Assembly: GCA_000004695.1 (NCBI GenBank)
Contig: CM000155.2
Coordinates: 3,296,001-3,360,000 of the forward strand
Reading direction: 5' to 3'
Origin: Dictyostelium discoideum
Lineage: Eukaryota
Length of the DNA: 64,000 nt
The notes beneath the pieces were generated by a model. That model did not search any database and had not been told where the DNA came from. It was given only the letters and a program-made list of their open reading frames with translations. A program made the position numbers and the translations under genes. Numbering within the stretch: the stretch's first letter is position 1; the number at the start of each line of letters is the position of its first letter. Below, piece by piece: positions 3,859-63,182 of the stretch.

Positions 3859-3949
3859 TGCTCCATGCGAGGATCGAACTCGCGACCAAAGCATTGCTTT
3901 ATCATACTGATATATAAGTACTTCACTCTACCGACTGAGTTAATAGAGC
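3859..3949 (-). tRNA. tRNA-Ile(UAU) with an 18-nt intron
   Basis: Hand-folded cloverleaf: acceptor GCTCTAT/ATGGAGC, D-arm ACTC-AGTCGGTA-GAGT, anticodon stem AAGTA/TGCTT, loop CTTATAA with anticodon TAT, intron after position 37 containing ATA complementary to the anticodon, T-arm GCGAG-TTCGATC-CTCGC, discriminator A. A T4 run follows the 3' end. It is identical to the copy at 16699..16789. Confidence 0.7.
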
Positions 3950-14893: not shown

Positions 14894-16411
14894 TTAATTT
14901 TTAATTTTAAAAATTTTATTATAAAAATAATCAGCAGTAAAATTATTTAATAAATTAACATTACCAAAATGAATTATTAATTTATCTAATGATTTTGGTA
15001 AATTAATTTGATATAACTGATGAGAATATTTTGAATTTTTAATTTCTAATATTTTTAAAGAATTTGGAAGTACATCTTTACCAATTGGTTTATCAAATGT
15101 AATACCTAATTGTAATGATGTCAAAGTCGGTGGTAAATCAGCAGGTTTAATATACTGATTGAAATTATCCAATACCAATGATTCCAATGAGGTACAATCC
15201 AATGAATCCTTAATAATTGATAAATTATCATTAAAACCACCCAAATTTAAATGTTTTAATGATTTTGGTAATGTATTTATTGGAATCACATTTTTAAATT
15301 GTTTACCAAATTCTAAAGATACCAAATTCGTATGCAAGAATAAAGCAGACATCGAGGAAGTGGAAAGCGGTGGATTGAAATTATCACCAAATTTGAGGCA
15401 AGTCAATGACGAGGGTAGCATTGCGGCGGTCAAACTTTGGTTAAACTCCAATCCAAATTCTAAATTGGTTAAATTTGGTGGTAGTACACATAGCTGGAAA
15501 TCACCATTCAAAGGTTGATTAAACTTGCTTCCAAATTTAATGGAGCCAAGCGAGGCTGGTAAAGAGCCTGCTTTAATTTCACGATTAAAAATTTGATTAA
15601 ATTCAATTGTTTCAACATTGTGTGGTATGTAACCCTCTTTAATAATGGCATTAAATGTTGGACTAAAGCTTAAATTTATCGTTGAGATTGGTATTGGGAT
15701 ATTTAAATTCAAGCTTGCAATATAGTTCAAATCTTTCACTTTACTTGGAATTGAGCCTGGCACTATAACACCCTTATATTGGCTACTTAGATGTAAATTC
15801 TCCAATGTTTCAGGTAAAATATTTTTATTTATAGTTTGTTGAAATGAAATTCCAAATTTTAAAAATTTAATTTTACTTGGTAACCAACCACCATCTAATG
15901 ATTGATTAAATAATTCACCAAATTCTAAACTTGTGACTGAATCTAATAATTTAACATTATCCATAACTTCATTAAATTTATCATTGAAAATAATAGATTT
16001 AATTGAATATGGGAATATACTATTACTTTCTTGTTCTTTATCGTTATTTACTACTAGTAATTCTGATAATTTCATTGATGTTGGTGTTGGCGTTGGTGTT
16101 GGCGTTGGTGATGTTGGTGATGTTGGCGGTGTAGTGGTGGTGCCACTTTTATTTAATTCTTTTACAATTACATTATTTAGTTTTAAATCTGAATCTTCTT
16201 CATAATTTACAAATATTAAATTTTCAATATAACTTTTGTATTTATATGTTGAATATTGATCTATTGTCATTTTCATTGTGGTGTGAACATTAAATAATCT
16301 TGTGTGAAATAATATTTTATTTAAAATTATTTCATTCCTCCAACAATTAAAAAATAATTCACAATTACTATTACTTGTTGATGATGATGATGATGTTGTT
16401 GTTTTAATCAT
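14894..16411 (-). CDS. FNIP-repeat protein
   Basis: Multiple about 22-aa repeats of the LP.SL..L.FG..FNQ.L type (FGSKFNQPLNGD, LEFGLEFNQSLT, LKFGDNFNPPL). The N-terminus ELFFNCWRNEIILNKIL is typical of the Dictyostelium FNIP family. 505 aa, single exon. Confidence 0.8.
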   Translation of the reverse strand: MIKTTTSSSSSTSNSNCELFFNCWRNEIILNKILFHTRLFNVHTTMKMTIDQYSTYKYKSYIENLIFVNYEEDSDLKLNNVIVKELNKSGTTTTPPTSPTSPTPTPTPTPTSMKLSELLVVNNDKEQESNSIFPYSIKSIIFNDKFNEVMDNVKLLDSVTSLEFGELFNQSLDGGWLPSKIKFLKFGISFQQTINKNILPETLENLHLSSQYKGVIVPGSIPSKVKDLNYIASLNLNIPIPISTINLSFSPTFNAIIKEGYIPHNVETIEFNQIFNREIKAGSLPASLGSIKFGSKFNQPLNGDFQLCVLPPNLTNLEFGLEFNQSLTAAMLPSSLTCLKFGDNFNPPLSTSSMSALFLHTNLVSLEFGKQFKNVIPINTLPKSLKHLNLGGFNDNLSIIKDSLDCTSLESLVLDNFNQYIKPADLPPTLTSLQLGITFDKPIGKDVLPNSLKILEIKNSKYSHQLYQINLPKSLDKLIIHFGNVNLLNNFTADYFYNKIFKIKN

Positions 16412-16698
16412 TTTGTAATATTAATTATTATTATTTATAAAATGAAGTTATCAAATTTGATTTTTGAAACATAAAAAAAAAAAAAATTTTTTTTTGTTTT
16501 TTTAGAAAAAAAATTTTTAAAAAAAAAATCTTTACTTGAATCAATTTCCAAGACATCCAATTTTTTTTTTAGAGTTTCCTTGTTACTATTTTTTAAAAAA
16601 AAATTTCAAAATTTGTTAGAATCTCTTTTTTGTTACAAAAAAAAATTAAAATTTATTATTACATATTTATTCATTTATTTTCATCAAAAAAATTGTGT

Positions 16699-16789
16699 GC
16701 TCTATTAACTCAGTCGGTAGAGTGAAGTACTTATATATCAGTATGATAAAGCAATGCTTTGGTCGCGAGTTCGATCCTCGCATGGAGCA
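16699..16789 (+). tRNA. tRNA-Ile(UAU) with an 18-nt intron (second copy, inverted relative to 3859..3949)
   Basis: 100% identical to the minus-strand copy. A T5 terminator lies at 16792-16796. An external B box GTGTTCGATTCC lies at about 16822-16834. Confidence 0.7.
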
Positions 16790-23033: not shown

Positions 23034-23215
23034 GAACCAGAGGATTTATTGTTAATAAGAACCTATGGTGACAATTCTAGTGCTCGATCATCAGGTCAAC
23101 TAAATATTCGAGATTCACCAAACAAGCCATTTAACTATCCTTATGTCATTCCACCAAAAAAAGACTTAATAGATTTATTACAAGAACAAGAGTTACAACC
23201 GCAACAAAAAGAACC

Positions 23216-23287
<72 letters not shown>

Positions 23288-23289
23288 GC

Positions 23290-23321
<32 letters not shown>

Positions 23322-24302
23322 GATCAACCACTACAACAACAACTACAACTACAACTACAACAACAACTACAACTACAACAACAACTACAACAACTACAAC
23401 TACGACTAAAAACACTACAATTACAACAACAACTACAACTACTACAACTACAACTACTACAACTACAACAACCACAACAACAACTACAACTACAACTACT
23501 ACAACTACAACAACTACAACAACAACTACAACTACAACTACAACTACTACAACAACAAAAAGCAAAAAAAGTTGATAAGGATTTGGAAATAATTGAGAAA
23601 TTTAAATCAGCAAATGAAAGTTCACTTTCAAAACAAGAAAAAACAGTAAAATTCTATCACAAAGGTACTCTTTACCAATATGGTTTTTCTCAAGAAACAT
23701 TTGATAAAACTATCGATGCCTCATTAAGTGAATTAATGATTAGCATAAATTGTAGATACATAGAGGTGATTGATAAAAATGAAAAAGGTAAAGGAAAAGT
23801 GATCCATGATTTAATTGGTCCAGCCGTATTCAATAATAAGGTAATTAATGACATAATCTTTGGTTTTTGTTACTACGATAAAGAGTTTCGAAATTGCCAA
23901 AAACATTGGTCATTAAGAATAATGGAGCATAGGACAAAATATCCAACAATTTTGAATATATCCATAACCATTTTACGTAACATCCAGGTTAGATGTAAAG
24001 ATATTTATGTAATTTTGGTAAATTTATTAATGGGTCATACTTTAGTCACTGGTTTGAAGTTATTTATTGATAAATTAGTCTCTTTTATCGATGGTCTCGG
24101 AAATAATAAAAAAGTAGAAATCTTTAAAATTGAAGATTTTGAAGAATTAATTCGATTATTCAAATTGGAGTATATGGATTATTCAATATCCATATATACA
24201 AGGGATTATTTTAAAGAATTAAAGAGATATATATATTTACTTCATCTCTTTTCAACCAATAAATTGTCAAATGAAAATGTGTTACCAATAACTCAAAACT
24301 AA
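23034..24302 (+). CDS. uncharacterised poly-Q protein, tandem family member A
   Basis: ATG at 23034 (the track start at 23049 is TTG). A (CAA)n run followed by a (CAACTA)n-type minisatellite encodes QQQ.../QLQLQ. The conserved C-terminal 230-aa domain is shared with copy B. A conserved upstream element cttaATGGGTAAGTTAA lies at 22747, but it is out of frame with the body in this copy. Confidence 0.6.
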
Positions 24303-28895: not shown

Positions 28896-29551
28896 TTGCT
28901 ATCTGTTTCTCCATAAGTTTCCACAACAATTGACCATTCTTTCATATCAAATGATTTAACAATTCCAACTTCCAACTGTTGGCTGATAATAAAGAAAAAA
29001 AAAAAAAGAAACATGTCCAATTTGTAATATTAAAATATTAAAGTACCGAAAGGTTTTAGAAAAAAAAAAAAAAAAAAATTTGTATTACTACTACCTTTTT
29101 TAATAAAAGTTTATTTAGTTTTAAATTGTGAATTTTAATTTTATTTTATTTTATCTAAAAAAATTTAATTATTTAATTTTATTTTTTTATTATTTAATTA
29201 TTTTTAATAAGGAGGCCAACCATTTTTTTATATTGATCAATCAGTGTTTATTCATTAAAGGAAATAAACAATAGTTAATTTTTTATTTGTAAATTTTAAT
29301 TTTAAAATTAAAAAGATGTAAAGTAATTTTTTCTTTTTTAATTTATATAACTAAAGAATTTAATATTTTGAAATATAGTTGACAAAACTCGTATCACCTG
29401 GCTGTGAATTTTTCAATGTCATGATTCATCTCAAGGTTATTAATATTTTTATGGTATAGTATGATAATTAACACCACTTTTGCACCTTTATCAATTTTAA
29501 TTATGGTCTTTAACGAACCATTATCATCAAACAATCATTGAAAACATCAAT

Positions 29552-29633
29552 GACATCGTAGCGAAGTGGTCTAACGCGTTTGACTTGAAATCAAATCTCC
29601 TAGGAGGCGCAGGTTCGAACCCTGCCGATGTCG
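29552..29633 (+). tRNA. tRNA-Ser(UGA)
   Basis: Acceptor GACATCG/CGATGTC, discriminator G. Anticodon stem TTTGA/TCAAA with loop CTTGAAA (anticodon TGA). Long variable arm TCTCCTAGGAGGCG. T-arm CAGGG-TTCGAAC-CCTGC. Confidence 0.8.
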
Positions 29634-30080
29634 ACAATTTTAATGTTAATATTAATTAGATACCCGCTTTTTTTTGGCATCTTTATTTCTAACGACTAAA
29701 AAGACATTTCTCTTGGCATTTTGATAATAAAAAGCCTACAGTTGATCAAACGGATACTAGATACAGAAAAACATATCCATCATCAATCTAACATCAACTA
29801 CATCTATCTACTCTACACACTAATTCCTTCAATCCTTGGATTGGGAATAAGAATAGATCTGAATAAACGAGAAAGAAAAAAAAAAAAAAAAAAAATAAAA
29901 ATAAAAATCAAAAATATTTTTATATAAACACATAATTAAAAAAAAAATAATAAAAATAATATAAAAAAAAAAAAAAAAAAAAAAAAATGAATTTTTTCGA
30001 TAAACTTAAAGGTGAACTCAACTTAGGCGAAGAAGTTAAATAAAAAAACTATTCAAATAAGGTTATTCTACCCAAATACC

Positions 30081-50215: not shown

Positions 50216-51790
50216 ATGAATGGAGTTGATATAAATTCAAATTTAGATTCAATTAAAGCAAAAGCAGAAGATATTAGAAATTTATTATTAACAACTTCAA
50301 CTGGTAATTGGGAGGATATTTTAGGACATTTTGTAGTATTATCAGGTGAATATGGATCATTAGTCAGAGAGGTCAATAATATATACGATAGTGTTGCAGT
50401 ATTTCCTGAACAAGTTACAGGTGATCCAAATTTAATACCAAATTTATTAAGAACAAAACTATCACCAGAATTGGAGACCAAGAATAGAGATATCATAAAT
50501 CAATACGTTTCAAAGAATTCCACTCACTATGATCCTGGAAATCAAGAGGAGAATATACCACCATTGAAATTACATATAAAATCATTCAATGATAGAATAG
50601 ATAAAGTGGATCAAGAATTTGAGAATAAAATTCAACAAATCAGTAAACATAAATTAACCAAACCATCAGCATCCCACGATACCGCAATCCTCAAAGACAT
50701 CCTCTCCATCACAATGCTAGGATCAGGTATTAAAATCAATGCTCAACAACAATTAGCACAACAACAACAACAACAAGCTACAATCAATGCATTACAACAA
50801 CAACAAAGATTATTAAATGCACAACAACAACAACAACAGCAACAACAACCACAAGCATTATATAAATTACCTGCTACAAATACTGCAAATACTTCAACTA
50901 ATACACCATCATCAACAATTGTAATTAATTCACCATCACCTGGTGGTATTCATCATAATGTACCAACACCACCAACCAATCTAAATGCTGCTGGTACTAG
51001 AACTTCACCACCAAATGTACAGCAATATGTAAATTCACCACCACCACAACAACAACAGCAACAACAAATTAATACAGTCATTGGAACACCAAATACAATA
51101 CCAACCACACCAACAGCAACAGTATCAACTGCTGCCACTTATAAACCAGTGGCATCACCACAACAACAAGTTACTTCTAAGCAAGTACCAATACAGTCAA
51201 CAAATAAACCATTACCACAACAACAACCTTCAATACAAATTCAACCACAACAATCTATTGTGCAAATGGTGCAGAATGTTTTACCAAATACAACTTCACC
51301 ACCTGTTAACAATAATAATCAATCACCAATTAATAGTGGTATTGGAGGAGGTCAATTTAAACCATCAGCTATTAATATTGCAAATGCAAATAGTGGTACA
51401 TCAACAATTCAACAACAAATTCAATTACAACAACAACAATTACAACAACAAATTCAATTACAACAACAATTAGCACAGCAGCAACAACAAAATCAACAAA
51501 ATCAACAAAATCAACAAAACCAGCAAAACCAACAAAATCAACAAATTCATCAACATATTCAACATTTAACACCACAACAACAAGCTCAATTACAACAACA
51601 AATGTTACAACAACAACAACTTCAACAACAATTTCAACAACAACAATTATCACAACAACTTTTACAACAACAACAACTTCATCAACAACAACAACCAAAT
51701 CAAACAATTCAAAATCCATTTCATAATTTTCAAGCAAATAATTTCAGAGTTCAAAATCCTACAAATTTTAATCCACCACAAAATCAATAA
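50216..51790 (+). CDS. probable Mediator complex subunit 8 (Med8) homolog with long Q-rich C-terminus
   Basis: The N-terminal 150 aa resemble the Med8 family (…GHFVVLSGEYGSLVREV… then …LIPNLLRTKLSPELE…). Assigned from memory of human MED8; not verified. 524 aa, single exon. Confidence 0.45.
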   Translation: MNGVDINSNLDSIKAKAEDIRNLLLTTSTGNWEDILGHFVVLSGEYGSLVREVNNIYDSVAVFPEQVTGDPNLIPNLLRTKLSPELETKNRDIINQYVSKNSTHYDPGNQEENIPPLKLHIKSFNDRIDKVDQEFENKIQQISKHKLTKPSASHDTAILKDILSITMLGSGIKINAQQQLAQQQQQQATINALQQQQRLLNAQQQQQQQQQPQALYKLPATNTANTSTNTPSSTIVINSPSPGGIHHNVPTPPTNLNAAGTRTSPPNVQQYVNSPPPQQQQQQQINTVIGTPNTIPTTPTATVSTAATYKPVASPQQQVTSKQVPIQSTNKPLPQQQPSIQIQPQQSIVQMVQNVLPNTTSPPVNNNNQSPINSGIGGGQFKPSAINIANANSGTSTIQQQIQLQQQQLQQQIQLQQQLAQQQQQNQQNQQNQQNQQNQQNQQIHQHIQHLTPQQQAQLQQQMLQQQQLQQQFQQQQLSQQLLQQQQLHQQQQPNQTIQNPFHNFQANNFRVQNPTNFNPPQNQ

Positions 51791-52759
51791 AAGTAAATAT
51801 AAATATAAAAATTTATATTTAGAAAAAAAAAAAAAAAATTATTTGATCTGAGACCATAATATTTTATGAATATTTTTTTAATTATTAAAAAAAAAAAAAA
51901 AAAACTAAAAATTAAAACTCACTTAATTTAGGCACATCATTTTTTTTTTTATTTTTTTTTATTTGGATTGTTTTTAAAAAAAAAAAAAAAAAAAAAAGTT
52001 TATATAAAATAGTAGTGGAGAAAAAAAAAAAAAAAAAACAGTTTACGATGGTGCATTAATAAAAAAAAAACAAAAAAAGATAAAAATAAATTTCCCCCAT
52101 CACACAACAACATAAATCCACTCTTTCAAAAACAAATAATTAATTATTTAAAAAAAAATAAAAAAAATAAAAATTACCATTTTCAAATAATTTTATTTTG
52201 TATTTTTTACAAATTGGGGTGGTTTTTTTTTTTTTTTTTTTAAATATTCAATTGAATTATTAATTTTAATTTTAAAAAAAAAAAATTCAACACGCACATT
52301 TCAACCTCACACTCTCTCTGGCTTCTCTCTTTCTCTTATTTAATTTAAAATTCAACTTTTAAAAATATTTTCTATCTACAAATTGATAGCAGATCGTATA
52401 TTGGAAAAAAAACTAAAAATAAAAAAAAAATAATTAAAAAAATAATTTAAAAAAATTAAATTAAAAATAAACAAATAAGGTTTTTTTTTTTTTTTATCAG
52501 ACACCCACCCCACTATATATAATTTATTTAATAAAAAAAAAAATAAAAAAAAAAAAAAATAATAAAAAAAAACAATATTAAAAATATAATGTAATGTTTT
52601 AGGAAAAAAAAAAAAAAAAAAATTAAAATACAATTTATATGTTGCACATATAAATTGAAAAACACCAATAATAATAATAATCAAAATAAAAATTATTATT
52701 ATTATTATAATATAAAATTAAAATAAAATAAAAATAAAAAATATAATAATAATTTAAAA

Positions 52760-56734
<3,975 letters not shown>

Positions 56735-56977
56735 TTAATAATTTTTATAATAATAATAAAAAAAAAAAAAGGCGCTTCACCCCCTATACATATATATGTA
56801 TTTATATAAACTTTCAAAAAGATTTTTATTACTTTTTTTTTAATTTTTTTACTCTTGTGTAAAATTAAAAATGTTGGTAACCTAATAATTATTATAATTA
56901 ATATTTTTTAAATTATTAAAAATATTATTAAATTGAAATAATGGTGAATCAGTTAATTGTTTCTCGACTGGATTTGA

Positions 56978-57250
56978 TTATTGTTTACTGCTTCTACTAC
57001 TACTACCATTACTACTACTAATACTACAACTACTACAACTACCACTACTACCACTAAGTATTCTCTCTGGTAATTTCTCATTTGATTTATCTGGGTTACG
57101 AGTGCCTAAAAATTCCCAAATAAAACCAGATTGAGGCTGTAGATGTGCTGGTGGGGGGTAAAATGCTCCAACCCTTATATGAGTAATAGAGTTGATACAT
57201 GAAAAGAATAAAAAAATAAATAACAGTAAGGGGATTGAGAACTTAAACAT
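56978..57250 (-). CDS. small secreted Ser-rich protein (90 aa)
   Basis: Signal peptide MFKFSIPLLLFIFLFFSCINS. Codon usage is unusually GC-rich for an intergenic region. No homolog recognised. Confidence 0.35.
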   Translation of the reverse strand: MFKFSIPLLLFIFLFFSCINSITHIRVGAFYPPPAHLQPQSGFIWEFLGTRNPDKSNEKLPERILSGSSGSCSSCSISSSNGSSSRSSKQ

Positions 57251-57922
57251 TTTTTAAAAAATAATGCAAATAATTTGTAAATAAAAAAAGAATAAATAAA
57301 AGAAAAATATATTCCTATATTTAAAAAATAAAATAAAAAATACATATGATAATAAATAAAAAATAAAATACCACCAATTTAACAAAGGGGGGGGGGGGTA
57401 CCACAAATAAACAAAATATAACACCACCAATTTTTTATCTTTTTACATAAAAAGATTAGTTTTTTTTTTATTTTTTTTATATTTCAATTAAGTTACAAAA
57501 ATGTGGAAGTACAAAAAATAATATGAATTTTCAAAAAAACTTAGTATTAACAGATGTTTAATTGAAGATATAACTGGAGACCTCTCAACATAAAAAAAAG
57601 AATGCACCAAAGGTTGAAATAATAATGATTGACATTGTTGAAAAAATATTTAGAGATTGTACTACCATGTTCACAAATTACTTTAAAGATGCTAAAATTG
57701 GAATAAAAAGAAAAGACCAATGTAGTGGAGTTAATTATTATATTTATTTGAAAGAGAAGAAGAAGATTGTGAATTTTTAAAAAATAAATAGTCAGGTTGT
57801 TCATTTAAGTCAAGAAAATAGTAACAAATCTGAATCTTTAAATGGTAAATTAATAAAAAAAAAATTATAATTATATTTATGTTATTGAAAAATAATTAAT
57901 TTGTTTGTCATGTAATATTATT

Positions 57923-57955
<33 letters not shown>

Positions 57956-58319
57956 AGAAGATAGCTATTGGCCGATGCGAAATAATATTTCCAGTATTAT
58001 CTGATTTTTGATTTAATAAATGCAAATTAATTACTGATGGAAAAAATAGGCTTTTTGTTAAAAAAAAAAAAAAAAAGATTCTTAATTATTTTTTTGATAA
58101 TTTAATAAGAAAATGAAAGAGTTTTTTTTTTTTTTTTAATTTGGGTTTATCTATCCCACAAAATTATTTTTTTATTTAAAATTTCTTATATAATTTTTTA
58201 ATTCTTTTTTTTAAATGTGTAAAACATTTAAGTTGACCTTACAGCAAATCTTGCAGAAAACCTTAGTCAACTGTCTTTTTTTTTAATTATTTGGGATAAC
58301 TATCGTTTAAAATTAAAGC

Positions 58320-58680
58320 TGGTGTAGTTGGTATTCCAATGATTGTATTAATTTGTTGTTGTTATTGTTGTTGTAATGGTGGTGGATTTACATATTGCTG
58401 TGCATTTGATGGTGTTGGTGGTGGTGGTGGATTTACATATTGTTGTACATTTGGTAGTGAAGTTCTAGTACCAGCAGCATTTAGATTGGTTGGTGCAGTA
58501 TGATGAATTAATTGCAATTGTTGATGATGGTGTATTAGTTGAATTTGTATTAGAATCTGTTGTTGCTATTGTTTATTTGTTGCTTTATAAGCAGCAACAG
58601 CTGTTGTTACTGTAGTTGGTATTTCATTTGGTGTTCCAATAACTTTATTAATTTGCTGTTGTGTTTAGTGAAATAAATTG
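58320..58680 (-). pseudogene. inverted, internally rearranged partial copy of the Med8 coding region (50880-51160)
   Basis: The reverse complement of 58480-58510 matches 50970-51012 (ccaaccaatctaaatgctgctggtactagaacttcacc). Other blocks match 50880-50940 and 51060-51150, in changed order and with an internal duplication. Stop codons interrupt all frames. Confidence 0.6.
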
Positions 58681-59347
58681 TGGTATATAAATGTCAATTA
58701 ATAATGCTATTATAATTATTGCAAAAAAAAAAAAAAAAAAAAAGTTTATTTGTTAATTGAATAAATTGATTATTTTTATTATTATAATAAATATTATTAT
58801 TATTTATTATTATTAAAGTTATTCATTTTTGATTCCATATGGCAGTATTTTTTTTTTTTTTTTTTTTATTTGATTGGTTTTTTTTTTTTTTTTTTTAATT
58901 ATAAATTAGGTTGAATATTTTTATTTTTTTATTTTTAAAAAATAATTTATGACAAAACTGTCATTTTCCGAGCTATTTAATGATTTATGGGTGAATGGTT
59001 TCGAAAAATAACGGATCACCTGGTGGTTTTAAAAATTTAAAATAAAATAAAAAATTTTAAAATAAAAAAAAATAAAAAAAAAAAAAAAAAATATTTTCAT
59101 AATTTTTTATTTTTTTTATTTTTATTTTTATTTTTTTTGAAAAGACACCAACATTGCTTTTTTTTTTTTTTTTTTTTTTTTTTTGGAATAAAGGAAAAAG
59201 AAAAAGAAAAAAAAAAAAAAAAAAAAAAAAACAAAAAAGTTTTTGTGTAATGTAATAATTCATTTTTTTTTTTATATGAATGTAAAATCGAAAAAATATA
59301 AATAATAAATAATAAACAATAATAATAAAAAAAAAAAAAAATACTAA

Positions 59348-62561: not shown

Positions 62562-62606
<45 letters not shown>

Positions 62607-63182
62607 CATAATAATAATTATTAATTAATATATATTATAAAAATAAAATAAAATAATGATAATAATAAAGTTTTTAATGGGTTTTTCAATTGTTGGTATA
62701 ATGTATTTTGCAAGAAGATGGCAACCAAGACAAATTCAAAGGATTATACAAATGTTTAAGAATGGATCAGATGATATGGATATTTTATCATTGACATCAA
62801 AAGATCAAACATTTCATTCAAACATTTCATTCAATCGTGAAAAAGAAGTTAATTATTTAAATTCATTTCTATCATCACCACCATTAGGACCAATTGTAAT
62901 AGTTGGGCCTGAAGGTTGTGGTAAATCACATATAGTTAGAAGAGTATTATCATCACGTCAAATGTCAATTCTAGTTGATATGAGAAAGAATGCAGTTATG
63001 ACTGGTGATGAATTATTATTATCATTTTTAGGTAGATTAGGTTATTTATTACCATCAAGTGATCCAATTTCATCTTTATTTTTAAAAGCTGAAAAAAAAC
63101 AAAGTAAAATTTTAATCAAATTAGAGTGTTTATTAATTATTATTATTGAGTAGATTATATTAATATAAATTATTATTTGTTT

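Follow-up and report, generated by a model that had tools for sequence, protein, structure and literature searches.

Within an AT-rich spacer on chromosome 6 of Dictyostelium discoideum there is a short island of DNA that is richer in GC than its surroundings. It raises three questions: what this DNA is, how it came to be where it is, and whether it does anything. The stretch of DNA analysed here, referred to as the window, is 64 kb long and corresponds to chr6:3,296,001-3,360,000 of strain AX4; positions given below are positions in the window unless another sequence is named. A reading made from the letters of the window (the sequence-only reading) had suggested that the island is a pseudogene fragment, inverted and scrambled, that derives from the coding region of Med8 and was left by a small segmental duplication or by retro-copying, and that it could be a source of antisense RNA against its parent. 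The follow-up described here indicates that it is a dead, permuted and inverted partial copy of the nearby putative Med8 gene, 349 nt in length and non-coding.

Homology to the med8 linker

The whole Med8-derived fragment is best placed at 58320-58668 on the minus strand (349 nt), this being the strand that is sense to med8. With a GC content of 34%, where the flanks have 15%, it accounts for the GC-richer island in the spacer. A blastn search with 58200-58800 as the query against the whole window matches 58406-58543 to 51061-50893 on the minus strand (E 4.7e-38), 58323-58428 to 51097-50962 (E 1.6e-18) and 58602-58665 to 51118-51054 (84.6% identity, E 3.6e-14), the last two likewise on the opposite strand. 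The similarity to the Med8 ORF is thus present where the sequence-only reading had placed it.

In local alignments the copy and its parent are 86-94% identical when ungapped columns only are counted, close to the 85-90% originally estimated, and about 370 nt of the parent ORF are represented in the fragment. The longest exact match is a non-repetitive stretch of 39 nt, CACCAACCAATCTAAATGCTGCTGGTACTAGAACTTCAC, which runs from 58495 to 58457 in the copy and corresponds to the parent from 50970. The likeness extends beyond the CAA/ACA repeats to which, as the sequence-only reading had cautioned, it might have been confined: in addition to this unique match, the fragment and the ORF have 28 21-mers and ten 30-mers in common, whereas the highest counts among 698 background windows of equal length are 13 and 0. 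The k-mer background counts and the unique exact match together rule out a chance or low-complexity similarity.

When the 125-aa linker was compared by phmmer with 1.84 billion representative proteins, nothing was found apart from the Med8 cluster and a single weak match of low complexity. The source is therefore med8, and a dispersed family of protein repeats is ruled out.

The parent gene

The parent is a putative Med8 ORF encoding 524 aa (50216-51790, plus strand), and is intronless, being a single uninterrupted reading frame. The segment from which the copy derives, 50876-51245 on the plus strand, encodes a linker rich in Thr, Pro, Ser and Gln, at approximately residues 221-345 of the 524. 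The copy lies about 7.2 kb from its parent in the inverted orientation, with one F-box-like gene (1324 aa, 52760-56734) in between.

The name Med8 is plausible but only weakly verified. The D. firmibasis ortholog, which is 81% identical, has a UniRef name beginning 'Mediator of RNA polymerase...'. The N-terminal 175 aa score 19.5 bits (E 7.7e-4) with the Pfam Med8 family (PF10232), below the cutoff of 28.3 bits, and the full-length 524-aa protein has no match in Pfam. Searching the sequences of the PDB with the N-terminal domain returned noise alone.

A weak similarity (66-72%) was also seen between the med8 linker at 51037-51254 and another coding-like region of the window, at 23213-23510 on the plus strand. 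This probably reflects a common low-complexity composition rather than homology.

Order of the blocks

The sequence-only reading had described three blocks of the Med8 ORF, in rearranged order and with a local duplication. All three blocks are present, and a fourth had been missed. The rearrangement is real and reduces to a circular permutation with a single internal junction. Followed along the minus strand from 58668 to 58320, the fragment corresponds to parent 51054-51245, then to the hexamer TTCAAC, and then to parent 50893 to approximately 51113; as aligned, this order is that of a circularly permuted unit of 347 nt.

The first block (C1, 58581-58665, minus strand) derives from parent 51054-51146, with approximately 86% identity in ungapped columns, and its translation in the frame of the parent resembles QQQINKVIGTPNEIPTT.... 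It is separated by a deletion of about 51 nt (parent 51147-51197) from block D, the one that had been overlooked, which runs from 58588 to 58538 in the copy on the minus strand and corresponds to parent 51191-51245, with 44 of 48 positions identical (92%). The junction of the permutation is the TTCAAC at 58538-58543 (minus strand), where parent 51240-51245 is joined, out of frame, to parent 50893-50898. Within parent 50860-51300 this hexamer is found at two sites only, 50893 and 51240, which are 347 nt apart.

Beyond the junction, blocks A and B (58431-58543, minus strand; parent 50893-51034) are approximately 94% identical to the parent in ungapped columns and hold the 39-nt exact match. They carry deletions of 20 and 9 nt, both of them at direct repeats of the type ATTCAyCAT. 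The final block (C2, 58320-58374, minus strand) corresponds to parent 51046 to approximately 51113, with 90% identity, and is a second copy of the C1 segment. The fragment has in consequence a terminal redundancy of about 60 nt, parent 51054-51113 being represented at both ends; 58628-58662 and 58328-58362 are 86% identical to each other.

The local duplication consists of two 45-nt units in tandem (58364-58453, minus strand), at 58364-58408 and 58409-58453, which are 82% identical. Both units carry a derived T>C (AAATCCACC); the corresponding sequence is AAATTCACC in the parent as well as in D. firmibasis. Because the derived base is common to both units, the duplication is a secondary event.

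Coding status and decay

The parental frame can still be recognised in the fragment (QQQINKVIGTPNEIPTT..., PTNLNAAGTRTSLPNVQQYVNPPP...), and it is broken both by stops and by changes of frame. On the minus strand there is a TAG (from CAG/CAA) at 58566-58568, in the retained parental frame, and a TAA, also in the parental frame, at 58362-58364; the frame also shifts at the junction, itself out of frame, and where 29 nt (20 + 9) have been deleted. There is no start codon in the fragment, and stops are found in all three minus-strand frames, as had been claimed. The copy differs from its parent by 31 substitutions in 344 aligned sites, a divergence of about 8-9%, and these fall at codon positions 1, 2 and 3 in the numbers 11, 13 and 7. 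There is no excess at the third position, and therefore no coding constraint on the fragment.

The in-frame stops, the frameshifts and the distribution over codon positions bear out the description of an inverted, rearranged and non-coding pseudogene fragment derived from a small segmental duplication. We infer that it is a non-functional, partial and unprocessed pseudogene, the absence of function being argued from its decay and its context. It resembles other unprocessed partial pseudogenes in being, as it appears, a DNA-level copy of part of a coding region, located on the chromosome that carries its parent and not far from it, in having stops, frameshifts and substitutions spread evenly over the codon positions, and in being present in one lineage only. 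It differs from them in being very short (349 nt), in being limited to an internal low-complexity linker, and in not being simply collinear with its parent, since it is inverted, is circularly permuted and has a redundant end. It is an ordinary, young, lineage-specific remnant of a gene fragment.

Age of the copy

The fragment lies in a spacer of about 2.2 kb (56735-58965, unstranded) that is specific to D. discoideum and that also holds DDB_G0293808, DDB_G0293810 and the small RNA gene DdR-62. The flanking genes are present on both sides at the D. firmibasis locus, window 56600-56734 corresponding to 16387-16521 of the D. firmibasis sequence (L002) and window ~58966 onwards to ~16666 onwards. 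The syntenic spacer there is about 145-160 bp (L002 16522-16665), against the 2.2 kb of D. discoideum; it is strongly diverged and lacks the whole of the 2.2 kb. No second med8-like segment is found in the 21 kb of the D. firmibasis locus. The absence of the fragment from the syntenic spacer places its origin after the split between the two species, and the substitutions lead to the same conclusion. Of the 69 sites that are informative in that the two orthologs have different bases there, 60 have the D. discoideum med8 base in the copy and 9 have the D. firmibasis base. In the same comparison the copy has diverged by about 8-9% from its parent, and the orthologs by about 23% from each other, which makes the copy younger than the split.

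Within D. discoideum, the sequence-only reading had proposed a comparison of strains, in case the fragment is polymorphic. No difference was seen: in a second assembly (GCA_054883475.1), which is 99.5% identical to the window over 21.6 kb, the fragment is identical base for base, this being the one further assembly that spans it and one that may come from a closely related laboratory lineage. Logan contigs of another D. discoideum strain are 99.6% identical and end at window position 57701, short of the fragment.

Origin of the copy

The reading that we prefer, with a probability of about 0.7, is that the fragment is a neutrally decaying, unprocessed pseudogene produced after the split by ectopic copying of the med8 linker at the level of DNA, mediated by microhomology. 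Approximately 370 nt of linker DNA would have been copied as DNA after the split, the copy being inserted about 7.2 kb from its source with its orientation reversed, in one event of ectopic replication or repair with microhomology-mediated template switching (MMBIR/FoSTeS-like), or as a templated insertion at a double-strand break. Synthesis would have proceeded over parent 51054 to 51245, switched back at TTCAAC to 50893 and continued to approximately 51113, and this switch of template would have produced the permuted copy with its redundant end. The losses of about 51, 20 and 9 nt, at short direct repeats, and the doubling of the 45-nt unit would be the work of later slippage; the deletions in the fragment are indeed bordered by direct repeats. 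Point substitutions (about 9%) would have given rise to the stops, leaving the fragment in neutral decay at present. We infer the copying mechanism, and the origin in a single event, from one junction only.

The experimental work that defines FoSTeS/MMBIR and templated insertion was done in yeast, human and plant systems. The case described here has in common with them a short donor located nearby in cis, an inverted orientation, a switch at 6 nt of microhomology and a donor that is partly re-copied. It differs in that the event is old (about 9% diverged), is known from its sequence alone, and offers the internal junction only. If correctly read, it provides a dated example in D. discoideum, later than the split from D. 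firmibasis, of a permuted micro-duplication mediated by microhomology.

An identical permutation would result if a tandem duplication had afterwards been truncated. The pattern could also have come from an extrachromosomal circle of 347 bp, similar to microDNA, that was excised between the TTCAAC repeats, copied through more than one turn and re-inserted nearby. Re-insertion of small circular DNA (microDNA/eccDNA) has a precedent in translocations by way of circular intermediates, for example at the cattle KIT colour-sidedness locus. The permutation is an exact circular one, with a single closing junction at a direct microhomology of 6 nt; the 347-nt unit is of the size of microDNA; and the terminal redundancy of about 60 nt would mean that more than one unit length was copied. 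However, to pass through more than one turn the circle requires the added assumption of a rolling circle or a multimer, and template switching on a linear chromosome gives the same pattern in fewer steps. At this locus, moreover, the circle is postulated from the pattern of the sequence, as a resemblance to the known cases. It is best seen as an unlikely route, though not a negligible one.

The sequence-only reading had also allowed for a retro-copy, in which part of the med8 mRNA would have been reverse transcribed, with template jumping by the reverse transcriptase, and the cDNA inserted. The fragment is purely exonic, and template jumps of this kind likewise use microhomology; since the parent is intronless, an RNA route is also compatible with the intron content. 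However, the fragment shows none of the testable hallmarks. It is an internal piece, with ends at parent ~51113 and 51245, whereas the ORF ends at 51790, and so stops short of the mRNA 3' end. Its sense 3' end has no poly(A), the A9 at that point being the T9 terminator of DdR-62 read on the opposite strand. It has no target-site duplication, the repeats around 58320-58668 being only AT-rich low-complexity pairs. Insertion of the TRE retrotransposons of Dictyostelium is directed to tRNA genes, of which the nearest lies about 29 kb from the fragment. A retro-copy is accordingly hard to maintain, and we give it very little weight beside copying at the level of DNA.

Capture by a transposon was considered and rejected: apart from AT-rich low-complexity pairs the fragment shows neither terminal inverted repeats nor target-site duplications, and the tRNA genes to which TRE elements are directed lie at least 29 kb away.

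With regard to the tRNA genes of the window, Rfam identifies three, at 3859-3949 (minus strand), 16699-16789 (plus) and 29552-29633 (plus). ARAGORN finds only tRNA-Ser(TGA), at 29551-29635, and the two that it missed (3859-3949 and 16699-16789) may contain introns.

The neighbouring Class I RNA gene

On the plus strand, outside the copy and ending 46 nt before it, is the Class I RNA gene DdR-62 (r62, DDB_G0295639; 58154-58284). Its parts, all on the plus strand, are a DUSE, TCCCACAA, at 58154-58161; a TGTG box at 58213-58219, with the DUSE approximately 60 nt upstream of it; the RNA at 58232-58273; and a run of T9 at 58276-58284. The 42 nt of 58232-58273 are identical to the published DdR-62, annotated at chr6:3,354,232-3,354,274, and have the features of a Class I RNA, namely a 6-bp terminal stem, the 11-nt motif CCUUACAGCAA, a CUGU end and canonical spacing. 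With the Rfam model RF01414 the score is 35.9 bits over the full model, the gathering score being 41.5. No match to a Class I RNA was found in the D. firmibasis spacer.

In published RNA-seq data DdR-62 has 0, 0, 10, 9, 4 and 3 reads at 0, 4 and 8 h, and it was scored there as not expressed ('read coverage 0'), whereas active Class I RNAs have 1e5-1e6 reads. By eye, DdR-62 resembles a derivative of the DdR-24/25/26/52 group with a deletion of about 16 nt, and it may itself be a decaying copy.

A possible antisense RNA

A function for the fragment has been suggested in the form of antisense RNA directed at the linker region of its parent. Transcription of the plus strand, whether by read-through from DdR-62 or as part of a transcript of DDB_G0293810, would give RNA complementary to med8 mRNA, and the RNAi machinery could draw on this RNA to modulate med8. 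In its fullest form the proposal would be that occasional RNA of either kind feeds RdRP and Dicer and tunes a Mediator head subunit during development. An antisense function is unlikely on the evidence set out below, and both the use of the RNA to modulate med8 and the developmental tuning seem to us highly improbable.

Inverted duplications of target genes are precursors of plant miRNA and siRNA loci, and the fragment resembles these in being an inverted copy of a coding segment with stretches of at least 21 nt that are perfectly complementary to the parental mRNA (28 perfectly matching 21-mers and the 39-nt perfect stretch). It differs in that the two arms are 7 kb apart with a gene between them, and in having no local foldback and no excess of structure. 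The fold of the plus strand has an MFE of -78.7 kcal/mol, against a mean of -75.3 kcal/mol for shuffled sequences (z = -0.83), and the repeats inside the fragment are direct, none being inverted; a hairpin or miRNA precursor is thereby rejected. There is no Rfam match inside the fragment.

A promoter is available, in that DdR-62, with its canonical DUSE and TGTG box, lies 46 nt upstream on the same strand, this being the sole promoter found upstream of the fragment on the plus strand. However, DdR-62 has only the few reads given above and is scored as not expressed, and the T9 run lies between it and the fragment. It is known that D. discoideum makes small RNAs antisense to mRNAs (PMC2175303). 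None of the Dictyostelium small-RNA papers found mentions med8, and in the part of the supplements to the 2024 miRNA paper that was available there is no chromosome-6 entry near the fragment. An old gene model linked exon 1 of DDB_G0293810 to the plus strand of the fragment, but that model, of 93 aa, is a prediction, and its ORF is mirrored antisense in med8. Finally, the fragment has decayed at all codon positions and by indels, without a conserved core, and it is missing from the sister species D. firmibasis. It would be relevant to the regulation of Mediator only if its antisense strand were expressed and processed.

Gene models on the antisense strand

The antisense strand of the fragment carries a Cys/Gly-rich ORF of 54 aa (58339-58503, plus strand). 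A homologous Cys/Gly-rich ORF of 61 aa is found antisense within med8 itself (50953-51138, minus strand), and the 54-aa ORF is therefore a by-product of composition. Stop-free antisense frames of this kind seem to follow from a CAA/ACA/CCA-rich composition, and seem able to mislead gene finders.

Two gene models make use of this strand. An obsolete model of 93 aa (P0005, MetaClust) has exon 1 of DDB_G0293810 (57625-57721) spliced to 58320-58503 on the plus strand, across an intron of 598 nt with a GTAGTG donor and with DdR-62 inside it; the current RefSeq model of DDB_G0293810 is a single exon of 51 aa. More recently, a plus-strand gene call of 134 aa has been made in GCA_054883475.1, at approximately 57625-58668, and a search for its exon structure with one or two GT-AG introns gave no solution. 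For annotation, the consequence is that the Cys/Gly-rich "exon" placed here by the 93-aa model and by the recent automatic call is the antisense strand of the dead Med8 fragment.

That 58320-58503 on the plus strand should be a genuine coding exon 2 of DDB_G0293810 is scarcely credible: a 93-aa protein of exactly that structure is present in a public protein set (P0005) and the 134-aa call spans 57625-58668, but among 5.8 billion sequences there is no homolog besides the 93-aa protein itself and there is no Pfam match, RefSeq now has the 51-aa single-exon model, the 598-nt intron with its GTAGTG donor would have to enclose a separate ncRNA gene, the Cys/Gly-rich ORF has its counterpart antisense in the parent at 50953-51138, and the locus is missing in D. 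firmibasis.

The spacer as a whole

Of the remainder of the spacer, the orphan ORF DDB_G0293808 (90 aa, 56978-57250, minus strand) had no mention in the literature searched, and exact look-ups of the 90-aa, 54-aa and 51-aa ORFs returned nothing on record. For the other parts of 56735-58990 no source was found within the 64-kb window; the match of 58687-58743 to 62580-62635 is one of AT/poly(A) low complexity.

Lineage-specific intergenic indels of about 2 kb between D. discoideum and D. firmibasis have been seen at species-specific miRNA loci (Edelbroek et al. 2024, PMC11014262). The spacer described here is similar in that its D. discoideum form exceeds the syntenic D. firmibasis one by about 2.2 kb, and differs in that the extra DNA holds, in place of a miRNA hairpin, a decayed gene fragment, two orphan ORFs and a near-silent Class I RNA gene. 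With this content (the fragment, a truncated and near-silent Class I gene, and the two ORFs), the spacer may help in studying how intergenic DNA has grown in Dictyostelium.

It is worth adding an observation on the spacer downstream of med8, where 52094-52320 differs from the corresponding part of GCA_054883475.1 (L001, 11879-12106) by about 17 clustered substitutions. These are mostly G, C or T in the window and A or T in the other assembly, and the cluster could be either an assembly error or a true variable patch. The remaining differences between the two assemblies are mostly in homopolymer length, together with scattered substitutions.
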